Below are positions 45,620 through 61,454 of a stretch of DNA of 64,000 nt, piece after piece. The position numbers and the translations under genes are program-made. Below the pieces are notes generated by a model. The model saw only the letters and a program-made list of their open reading frames with translations, was not told the DNA's origin and ran no database searches. The stretch lies in the NCBI RefSeq assembly GCF_030013595.1, contig NZ_CP122768.1. One strand, written 5' to 3'. Source of the stretch: Escherichia coli (GTDB taxonomy: Bacteria > Pseudomonadota > Gammaproteobacteria > Enterobacterales > Enterobacteriaceae). Position 1 is the stretch's first letter. Every line of letters starts with the position of its first letter.

Positions 45620-46150
45620 ATGGCTATCACTGGCATCTTTTTCGGCAGCGACACCGGTAATACCGAAAATATCGCAAAAATGATTCAAAAACAGCTTGGT
45701 AAAGACGTTGCCGATGTCCATGACATTGCAAAAAGCAGCAAAGAAGATCTGGAAGCTTATGACATTCTGCTGCTGGGCATCCCAACCTGGTATTACGGCG
45801 AAGCGCAGTGTGACTGGGATGACTTCTTCCCGACTCTCGAAGAGATTGATTTCAACGGCAAACTGGTTGCGCTGTTTGGTTGTGGTGACCAGGAAGATTA
45901 CGCCGAATATTTCTGCGACGCATTGGGCACCATCCGCGACATCATTGAACCGCGCGGTGCAACCATCGTTGGTCACTGGCCAACTGCGGGCTACCATTTC
46001 GAAGCGTCAAAAGGTCTGGCTGATGACGACCACTTTGTCGGTCTGGCTATCGACGAAGACCGTCAGCCGGAACTGACCGCTGAACGTGTAGAAAAATGGG
46101 TTAAACAGATTTCTGAAGAGTTGCATCTCGACGAAATTCTCAATGCCTGA
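45620..46150 (+). CDS. fldA: flavodoxin 1
   Basis: Within ORF 45503..46150; start at [23 protein letters not shown] (ATG 45620), 176 aa. Confidence 0.96.
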
Positions 46151-46158
46151 TGTGATGC

Positions 46159-46185
46159 GGCGTAGACTCATGTCTACGCCGTATT
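46159..46185 (+). terminator. hairpin downstream of fldA
   Basis: GGCGTAGAC-TCAT-GTCTACGCC perfect stem-loop; weak T-tract, so may be partial. Confidence 0.45.
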
Positions 46186-46355
46186 AATAGATAATGCCAA
46201 TCAAAATAATTGCTACAAATTTGTAACTTTTGCTGTTGTACCTGTACAATGTCCCGGTGTTCAAGTGGCCTTGCCGTTGTAAATGTAAGCTGTGCCACGT
46301 TTTTATTAACAATATTTGCCAGGGACTTGTGGTTTTCATTTAGGCGTGGCAATTC

Positions 46356-46374
46356 TATAATGATACGCATTATC
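46356..46374 (+). promoter_or_regulatory. Fur box in the fur/uof promoter region
   Basis: TATAATGATACGCATTATC, 16 of 19 matches to the GATAATGATAATCATTATC consensus; overlaps the uof start. Confidence 0.5.
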
Positions 46375-46446
46375 TCAAGAGCAAATTCTGTCACTTCTCC
46401 TAATGAAGTGAACCGCTTAGTAACAGGACAGATTCCGCATGACTGA
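46360..46446 (+). CDS. uof: fur upstream ORF (leader peptide coupling fur translation)
   Basis: 28-codon ORF MIRIISRANSVTSPNEVNRLVTGQIPHD ending 5 nt into fur (C-terminal part of ORF-track 46210..46446). Confidence 0.7.
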   Translation: MIRIISRANSVTSPNEVNRLVTGQIPHD

Positions 46447-46885
46447 TAACAATACCGCCCTAAAGAAAGCTGGCCTGAAAGTAACGCTTCCTCGTTTAAA
46501 AATCCTGGAAGTTCTTCAGGAGCCGGACAACCATCACGTCAGTGCGGAAGATTTATACAAACGTCTGATCGATATGGGTGAAGAAATTGGTCTGGCTACG
46601 GTATATCGCGTACTGAACCAGTTTGACGATGCTGGTATCGTCACCCGCCACAATTTTGAAGGCGGTAAATCCGTATTTGAACTGACACAGCAACATCACC
46701 ACGATCACCTGATCTGCCTCGACTGCGGCAAGGTTATCGAATTTAGTGATGATTCCATCGAAGCGCGTCAGCGTGAAATTGCCGCAAAACATGGCATTCG
46801 CCTGACTAACCACAGTCTCTATCTTTACGGTCACTGTGCCGAAGGCGATTGCCGCGAAGATGAGCACGCGCACGAAGGCAAATAA
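46439..46885 (+). CDS. fur: ferric uptake regulator
   Basis: ORF track 148 aa MTDNNTALKKAGLKVTLPRLKILEVLQEP... Confidence 0.97.
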   Translation: MTDNNTALKKAGLKVTLPRLKILEVLQEPDNHHVSAEDLYKRLIDMGEEIGLATVYRVLNQFDDAGIVTRHNFEGGKSVFELTQQHHHDHLICLDCGKVIEFSDDSIEARQREIAAKHGIRLTNHSLYLYGHCAEGDCREDEHAHEGK

Positions 46886-46902
46886 GCCAGCCGGAACGAG
46901 AA

Positions 46903-60749: not shown

Positions 60750-60826
60750 GGCTACGTAGCTCAGTTGGTTAGAGCACATCACTCATAATGATGGGGTCAC
60801 AGGTTCGAATCCCGTCGTAGCCACCA
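60750..60826 (+). tRNA. metT: tRNA-Met (elongator, anticodon CAU)
   Basis: 77-nt cloverleaf GGCTACGTAGCTCAGTTGGTTAGAGC...ending CCA; anticodon loop CTCATAA. Confidence 0.95.
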
Positions 60827-60835
60827 TCTTTTTTT

Positions 60836-60920
60836 GCGGGAGTGGCGAAATTGGTAGACGCACCAGATTTAGGTTCTGGCGCCGCAAGGTGTGCGAGTTC
60901 AAGTCTCGCCTCCCGCACCA
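60836..60920 (+). tRNA. leuW: tRNA-Leu (anticodon UAG), long variable arm
   Basis: 85 nt GCGGGAGTGGCGAAATTGGTAGACGC...CTCCCGCACCA; anticodon loop TTTAGGT. Confidence 0.93.
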
Positions 60921-60943
60921 TTCACCAGAAAGCGTTGTACGGA

Positions 60944-61018
60944 TGGGGTATCGCCAAGCGGTAAGGCACCGGTTTTTGATACCGGCATTCCCTGGTTCGA
61001 ATCCAGGTACCCCAGCCA
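60944..61018 (+). tRNA. glnU: tRNA-Gln (anticodon UUG)
   Basis: 75 nt TGGGGTATCGCCAAGCGGTAAGGCACCGG-TTTTTGATA-CCGG...; anticodon TTG. Confidence 0.95.
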
Positions 61019-61052
61019 TCTTCTTCGAGTAAGCGGTTCACCGCCCGGTTAT

Positions 61053-61127
61053 TGGGGTATCGCCAAGCGGTAAGGCACCGGTTTTTGATACCGGCATTCC
61101 CTGGTTCGAATCCAGGTACCCCAGCCA
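61053..61127 (+). tRNA. glnW: tRNA-Gln (anticodon UUG)
   Basis: Identical sequence to glnU. Confidence 0.95.
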
Positions 61128-61142
61128 TCGAAGAAACAATCT

Positions 61143-61219
61143 GGCTACGTAGCTCAGTTGGTTAGAGCACATCACTCATAATGATGGGGTCACAGGTTCG
61201 AATCCCGTCGTAGCCACCA
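61143..61219 (+). tRNA. metU: tRNA-Met (elongator, anticodon CAU)
   Basis: Identical sequence to metT. Confidence 0.95.
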
Positions 61220-61267
61220 AATTCTGAATGTGTCGAATAAGTTCGGCAAATTCACAAACCAATTTGT

Positions 61268-61342
61268 TGGGGTATCGCCAAGCGGTAAGGCACCGGATTC
61301 TGATTCCGGCATTCCGAGGTTCGAATCCTCGTACCCCAGCCA
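61268..61342 (+). tRNA. glnV: tRNA-Gln (anticodon CUG)
   Basis: 75 nt; anticodon stem-loop CCGGA-TTCTGAT-TCCGG. Confidence 0.93.
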
Positions 61343-61379
61343 ATTTATTCAAGACGCTTACCTTGTAAGTGCACCCAGT

Positions 61380-61454
61380 TGGGGTATCGCCAAGCGGTAA
61401 GGCACCGGATTCTAATTCCGGCATTCCGAGGTTCGAATCCTCGTACCCCAGCCA
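61380..61454 (+). tRNA. glnX: tRNA-Gln with anticodon CUA (amber-suppressor allele, supE-type)
   Basis: Identical to the tRNA at 61268..61342 except a single G to A change in the anticodon (TTCTAAT versus TTCTGAT); glnX name assigned by position next to ubiF. Confidence 0.9.

Follow-up and report, generated by a model that had tools for sequence, protein, structure and literature searches.

The control region upstream of fur in the window, by which we mean the whole stretch of 64,000 nucleotides that was analysed, is very probably the known fldA-uof-fur control region of Escherichia coli, working on two levels, that of DNA and that of RNA. A predicted Fur operator overlaps the start codon of the leader ORF uof because the TATAAT at this place is the -10 hexamer of the main fur promoter (Pfur). 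Since transcription from Pfur starts downstream of the uof ATG, at 46369, operator control and uof coupling belong to different transcripts. The Fur operator, the uof ORF, its overlap with fur and the interplay with RyhB are all annotated and published, and are already known. The observations reported here concern sequence features, mapped transcription starts, annotation and the pattern of conservation across Enterobacterales.

Identity of the locus and the overlap of uof with fur

The window is E. coli chromosome. Complete E. coli genomes match an 851-nt stretch around uof with 100% identity, and this stretch occurs in 5424 of the 5426 complete genomes of this species, with fldA, uof and fur annotated. 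The genes and their junction lie as follows.

45620 to 46150, + strand: fldA (annotation); read-through RNAs come from the fldA and ybfE promoters
46360 to 46446, + strand: uof, the 28-codon fur leader ORF, ATG to TGA (RefSeq, NF011344)
46425 to 46428, + strand: AGGA, a Shine-Dalgarno-like element 10 nt upstream of the fur ATG (anti-SD pairing at -4.0 kcal/mol)
46439 to 46446, + strand: stop/start overlap ATGACTGA, containing the fur ATG and the uof TGA (sequence)
46439 to 46885, + strand: fur coding sequence, 148 aa (annotation, NCBIfam NF006999)

The sequence-only reading had taken the 28-codon ORF for uof, and this identity is borne out. RefSeq annotates uof at exactly 46360-46446 with the product 'fur leader peptide' (WP_001695552.1), the peptide MIRIISRANSVTSPNEVNRLVTGQIPHD scores 81.3 bits against the NCBIfam equivalog NF011344 (cut-off 71) with 28/28 positions covered, and the promoter-uof region is 1 nt different from that of K-12 MG1655, in which uof is b4637. 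The sole difference, C at 46399 here and T in K-12, leads to S14P and lies in the loop of the leader hairpin. The product of fur scores 309 bits against NCBIfam NF006999.

The same reading had placed the stop of the ORF 5 nt inside fur. As an offset of the stop this is correct: the uof TGA (46444-46446) begins 5 nt after the A of the fur ATG (46439), and the two frames share the 8 nt ATGACTGA. This octamer also gives a stop (ATGA) for the other non-fur frame. Both non-fur frames are thus stopped there, so that every upstream frame that is open terminates at the fur start. The ribosome-binding block of fur (AACAGGAC) is invariant in our alignment, and the Shine-Dalgarno-like element of uof is weak and distant.

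At codon 14 of uof (46399-46401) the window has CCT (Pro), K-12 has TCT (Ser) and another E. coli, L006, has TTT (Phe); these changes all fall in the hairpin loop, and most complete genomes have the K-12 base. Elsewhere in the window, a cluster of seven tRNA genes on the + strand (60750-61451) is unrelated to fur and uof. An antisense ORF at 46140-46394 (84 aa) was dismissed, having no family match.

The main fur promoter and its probable operator

Promoter, operator and start point overlap within a short stretch.

46333 to 46338, + strand: -35 hexamer TTTTCA of Pfur (sigma-70 match, conserved block)
46356 to 46361, + strand: -10 hexamer TATAAT of Pfur, the last two bases of which form the uof ATG with G46362
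46356 to 46374, -13 to +6 relative to the start at 46369: Fur box, the predicted autoregulatory operator of fur (consensus match, conservation)
46369, + strand: main fur transcription start, an A (two 5'-triphosphate data sets)

Between 45400 and 47000, the best sigma-70 match is TTTTCA, 17 bp and TATAAT (10/12), and the -35 region block GTTTTCATTT is near-invariant across Enterobacterales. Kim 2012 mapped a start with 46 reads to 709939 (NC_000913.2), with a flanking 51-mer ending in ...TTCTATAATGATACGCA, and SMRT-Cappable-seq mapped one to 710716 (U00096.3), with full-length RNAs that carry b0683 (fur) alone; both correspond to 46369 in the window. This is the most abundant mapped start. It follows the A of the uof ATG at a distance of 9 nt, and its RNA opens at uof codon 4, without the uof start codon. 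Hence, any action of uof is confined to longer RNAs from upstream promoters. A Pfur located inside uof and a separate Puof (+1uof) have been described (PMC6191717, PMC7867234). It is likewise already published that the -10 element and the operator are one, and that RNA from this promoter lacks the uof ATG.

A 5' end at 46432 (709876; 28 reads), 7 nt before the fur ATG, is also found in Kim 2012 and is absent from the SMRT-Cappable-seq list. An RNA starting there would be without the Shine-Dalgarno-like AGGA, and the end may reflect either processing or weak internal initiation.

A near-consensus Fur box overlapping the uof ATG had been proposed from the letters alone, and the box stands: the 19-mer TATAATGATACGCATTATC (46356-46374, + strand) agrees with the Fur-box consensus GATAATGATAATCATTATC at 16/19 positions, with the uof ATG inside it as positions 5-7. 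In a consensus scan it was the only site with three or fewer mismatches in the 64-kb window, and 100 dinucleotide shuffles yielded none; a second scan of 40 Markov-random sequences gave no 16/19 match and a mean of 0.05 matches of 15/19. Orthologous boxes in Enterobacteriaceae reach 13-16/19. The box covers both the -10 element and the start point of the main fur promoter (core-promoter overlap). Comparison with the mapped starts thus puts it within the promoter, at -13 to +6, and this position supports the role of an operator. Autoregulation of fur through the promoter-core box has been described as weak or moderate (PMC7867234).

A weaker Fur-box-like site (GATAATGCCAATCAAAATA, 14/19) is located at 46190-46208 in the same intergenic region and overlaps the -35 area of a minor start at 46226; chance alone would give about one match of 14/19 in every 64 kb.

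Longer RNAs carrying uof

A further promoter lies between fldA and Pfur.

46221 to 46257, + strand: Puof, consisting of TTGTAA, 18 bp and TACAAT, with start G46257 (promoter match, Kim 2012)

On fur mRNA, the uof start codon is present in RNAs initiated at the fldA promoter, the ybfE promoter and 46257, and absent from the 46369 RNA. In Kim 2012, the start at 710051, equal to 46257, has 8 reads and was assigned to uof, and its RNA includes the uof ATG; a further minor start, with 5 reads, lies at 46226. The start at 46257 is absent from the SMRT-Cappable-seq list. This list contains full-length b0684/b4637/b0683 RNA (fldA-uof-fur) from TSS 711521 (window 45564) and full-length b0685/b0684/b4637/b0683 RNA (ybfE-fldA-uof-fur) from TSS 711951 (window 45134). 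RNA-seq has likewise given a ybfE-fldA-uof-fur operon with three promoters (PMC4161252).

Upstream, the uof frame is open as far as a TTG at 46210 (46210-46446, 78 codons) and contains an in-frame ATG at 46249; neither E. albertii nor another E. coli conserves this extension. On fldA read-through RNAs, translation could in principle start earlier, at the upstream extension.

Predicted RyhB pairing, codon 6 and the leader hairpin

Three elements of the leader RNA bear on the control of Fur synthesis or on its structure.

46375 to 46377, + strand: uof codon 6, TCA (codon list; role from PMC11448259)
46379 to 46392, + strand: predicted complement of the RyhB core (duplex search with MG1655 RyhB)
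46391 to 46411, + strand: RNA hairpin UCACUUC-N7-GAAGUGA in the fur 5'UTR, uof codons 11-18 (fold, covariation)

According to the literature, RyhB blocks initiation of uof, translation of fur is coupled to that of uof, and a MiaB-dependent UCA codon is involved. The sequence-only reading had appealed to this known coupling and to RyhB; the same mechanism in published reviews and primary papers supports it, and it is not new. The UCA codon is codon 6, which needs MiaB-modified tRNA and shows iron-responsive decoding (PMC11448259). It is TCA only in Escherichia and Citrobacter, and CCA or CCC in Enterobacter and others.

Windowed duplex searches recovered the expected RyhB seed: GAGCAA (46379-46384) complements RyhB U42-C47, including G44/C45, and UGUC (46389-46392) complements G38-A41. 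The seed complement begins 10 nt after the start at 46369, and the GAGCAA seed is confined to Escherichia. Inversion of G44/C45 is reported to abolish repression of uof/fur (PMC6191717, citing Vecerek 2007). The RyhB-leader duplex has an energy of -12.1 kcal/mol, and shuffled leaders were equal or better in 57/200 cases; a duplex no better than shuffles agrees with the finding that the published RyhB-uof pairing is not predictable computationally (PMC3018821). RyhB is reported to lower the short fur RNA and not the long uof-fur RNA (PMC6191717). Because the short RNA is without the uof ATG, this effect cannot proceed via uof initiation. Lowering of the short RNA by RyhB does not fit a purely uof-mediated route, and is the only real loose end here.

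Unrestricted RNAduplex runs of RyhB against the leader were set aside, since they gave long unrealistic duplexes and better sites elsewhere. In several genera (L015, L039, L054, L055, L057 and others), the best complement of the RyhB core lies away from the E. coli site. An alternative complement lies at -40 to -15 before the fur ATG, adjoining the ribosome-binding block (GGAAGUGAAUCGUUUAGCAAC); with E. coli RyhB applied to all species, its duplex energy is as low as -19.9 kcal/mol in Cedecea.

In the centroid fold of the short RNA, the hairpin at 46391-46411 is the only element. It stands at the same place in every Enterobacteriaceae leader, with differing stems (CUUC/GAAG, GCUCC/GGAGC, GCCC/GGGC, GCUC/GAGC and CUCCC/GGGGG). 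After realignment of 62 leaders with a covariance model, 89.3% of cells were paired, against 32-49% for slid partners; double changes occurred in 6/8 hairpin pairs, and compensatory cells numbered 33, against 9.6 +/- 2.6 in shuffles, none of 500 shuffles reaching 33. As the covariance alignment is fitted to the structure, these pairing numbers lean towards the hairpin. RNAalifold on the MAFFT alignment missed the hairpin, and the column-wise pair count on that alignment is uninformative because the 5' arms are out of register. No Rfam family covers the fur leader.

The fold of the long RNA has a long-range helix of 46331-46349 with 46455-46471 (17 bp, -20.2 kcal/mol), strongest in E. coli and E. 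albertii, the arms of which are the -35/spacer of Pfur, present in long RNAs only, and fur codons 6-11. This helix was rejected: 76/300 shuffles were as good, cognate arms pair barely better than non-cognate arms, and both arms are conserved otherwise, as -35 region and as fur codons.

Conservation across Enterobacterales

From Enterobacterales species, 80 fur loci were retrieved, and 81 sequences were compared. From Escherichia to Dickeya, GTTTTCATTT-N-TTCTATAATGAGACGCATTA forms a near-invariant block, and TATAATG is kept in 73/81 sequences, including species without a uof-type ORF. The ORFs that begin at the -10 ATG end in different ways.

End at fur +5 (uof type): 37 of 81
End at fur +1 (ATGA): 7 of 81
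In frame with fur: 4 of 81
Stop before the fur ATG: 24 of 81
Past +5 (stop lost): 1 of 81
No ATG at -10: 8 of 81

A uof-type ORF is absent from 44/81 loci, and the contrast between 73 and 37 sequences means that the ATG is conserved as promoter sequence far more widely than the ORF. Salmonella arizonae, Citrobacter sedlakii, Klebsiella oxytoca, Raoultella, Atlantibacter and Pantoea are among the 24 early-stop cases, and the first four of these lost the uof-type ORF by frameshift. One-base deletions break the uof frame repeatedly among close relatives, with 1-nt indels in at least six lineages. Insertions of 3 nt keep the frame, giving ORFs of 28, 29 and 30 codons.

Within the 37 loci with in-frame leader length, the uof frame is stop-free in all, and among 28 distinct sequences 12 have a stop in one of the remaining frames and 10 in the other. 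The lineage-specific stop sites lie outside the uof frame without exception (14/14), for which a crude estimate that ignores phylogeny is (2/3)^14, about 0.003. Judged by this pattern, the uof ORF does not look neutral within the Escherichia-Citrobacter-Enterobacter-Kluyvera group. The middle of the uof peptide is not conserved, and the pattern as a whole fits a regulatory upstream ORF, of which the translation would matter and not the product. No clear sign of coding emerged from codon-position variability in the 11 final codons of uof.

The ATGA stop is used by seven species. In Buttiauxella and relatives (four species), the -10 ATG is in frame with fur, which makes an N-terminal fur extension of 24-25 residues possible. 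Loci with the ATGA stop or the fur-frame ATG are among L023, L028, L031, L050, L055, L057-L059, L061, L064 and L066. In L047 (Enterobacter asburiae), fur codons 2-3 changed from ACT GAC to ACA GAC; the uof stop is gone, and an ORF of 49 codons runs into fur.

Discussion

In the account that we favour, Fur binding, uof translation, coupling and the action of RyhB and MiaB are taken from the literature or inferred. At the DNA level, Pfur, with TTTTCA (46333), 17 bp and TATAAT (46356), starts RNA at A46369. Location of the Fur box over the -10 element and the start point suggests that Fur and RNA polymerase compete, so that iron-loaded Fur would weakly repress fur, a repression known from the literature. 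At the RNA level, RNAs from 46257 or from the fldA or ybfE promoter carry the whole 28-codon uof. Ribosomes that end uof at TGA 46444-46446 would then sit on the fur ATG (ATGACTGA), and Fur synthesis would thereby be coupled to uof translation, as published work holds. RyhB pairing around 46379-46392, together with inefficient decoding of the UCA codon 6 under low iron, would then lower Fur synthesis. The uof ATG exists as the tail of the -10 hexamer (TATAAT plus G), and Pfur RNA, opening at uof codon 4, is untranslatable as uof and has to use fur's own weak ribosome-binding site.

The first six nucleotides of the Fur box are the -10 hexamer itself, and TATAAT contributes 5 of the 16 matches. 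A strong -10 region might therefore merely resemble a Fur box, with no action of Fur there, and the description of autoregulation as weak or moderate (PMC7867234) points the same way. However, the other 11 matches lie outside the hexamer, random and shuffled sequences are without any 16/19 match, the bases after the hexamer (GAGACGCATTA) are near-invariant in Enterobacteriaceae, and Fur autoregulation via this box is reported in the literature; on these sequence comparisons, a chance look-alike is very unlikely. Still less credible is the idea that uof is the leader peptide of a trpL-type attenuator, in which the position of the ribosome would choose between terminator and antiterminator. It is true that uof is a short ORF in the leader, that it contains rare codons (ATA, AGA and TCA) and that a conserved hairpin lies inside it. 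But this hairpin is without a U tract after it, no terminator-like site was found in 46150-46900, the folds are without alternative hairpins, no Rfam leader family matched, and full-length reads run through the leader. A classical attenuator is excluded, because no terminator follows the leader.

More weight attaches to the alternative, in our view unlikely, that uof is largely a by-product of the -10 hexamer followed by G, that most fur mRNA is without its ATG, and that Fur synthesis and its control by RyhB proceed mainly via the short RNA and independently of uof. In favour, the main start at 46369 lies downstream of the uof ATG. TATAATG in 73/81 sequences against a uof-type ORF in 37, as well as the frame-breaking 1-nt indels in at least six lineages, speak for a by-product, as do the unconserved middle of the peptide, in which E. 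coli itself varies at codon 14 (P, S or F), and the lowering by RyhB of the short RNA and not the long one (PMC6191717). Moreover, where the peptide is conserved, its coding sequence is also that of the operator, the covarying hairpin and the fur ribosome-binding block, and these elements are equally present where the frame is broken. Against this stand the stop-free uof frame in 37/37 in-frame loci, the avoidance of this frame by 14/14 stop sites (crude p about 0.003), the 3-nt insertions that preserve the frame (28, 29 and 30 codons), the published fusions and mutants that show coupling, and the existence of long uof-containing RNAs. A narrower version of uof-independent control seems possible to us, although we advance it only tentatively. 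In this version, the route by which RyhB blocks uof would concern only a minority of fur RNAs, those made by read-through; the major, Fur-repressible RNA would use its own weak fur ribosome-binding site and come under uof-independent RyhB control, for example by 5'-proximal pairing that leads to decay; and the hairpin at 46391-46411, not the peptide, would be the main constrained element of the leader RNA.

If the uof-independent reading is true, it would be a modest revision of Fur homeostasis in E. coli, and would account for the absence of the ORF from relatives such as Salmonella arizonae and Klebsiella oxytoca. As a discovery, the present locus matters little. It offers a caution: where an operator 'overlaps a start codon', that codon may lie inside the promoter and be missing from the RNA made there.

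To return to the two-level control region that we favour, its counterpart is the uof-fur locus of E. coli K-12 (b4637-b0683), and the two are the same locus: they share the annotation, the Fur box and the uof ATG, as well as UCA at codon 6, the predicted complement of the RyhB seed and the overlap ATGACTGA. The difference from K-12 is one of allele only (46399 C for T, S14P). The K-12 system is reportedly the work of Vecerek, Moll and Blasi in 2007, of de Lorenzo in 1988 and of Zheng in 1999.

Compared with the Fur-box operators that lie over the -10 or -35 of iron-regulated promoters, described as the 19-bp GATAATGATAATCATTATC or as arrays of GATAAT hexamers, the fur box is alike in its 16/19 match and in covering a mapped promoter. 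Unlike those operators, it is autoregulatory, with repression reported to be weak, and its first hexamer is a perfect TATAAT. On the RNA side, uof resembles translationally coupled gene pairs whose stop and start codons overlap (ATGA or TGAnnATG), in which the upstream ORF ends on the downstream start. It also resembles leader ORFs targeted by sRNAs, such as thrL with GcvB, in that action of an sRNA on the upstream ORF has been reported. In contrast to the coupled pairs and to thrL, the start codon of uof sits within the -10 element of the promoter that belongs to the downstream gene itself, and hence coupling would be available to read-through RNAs only.
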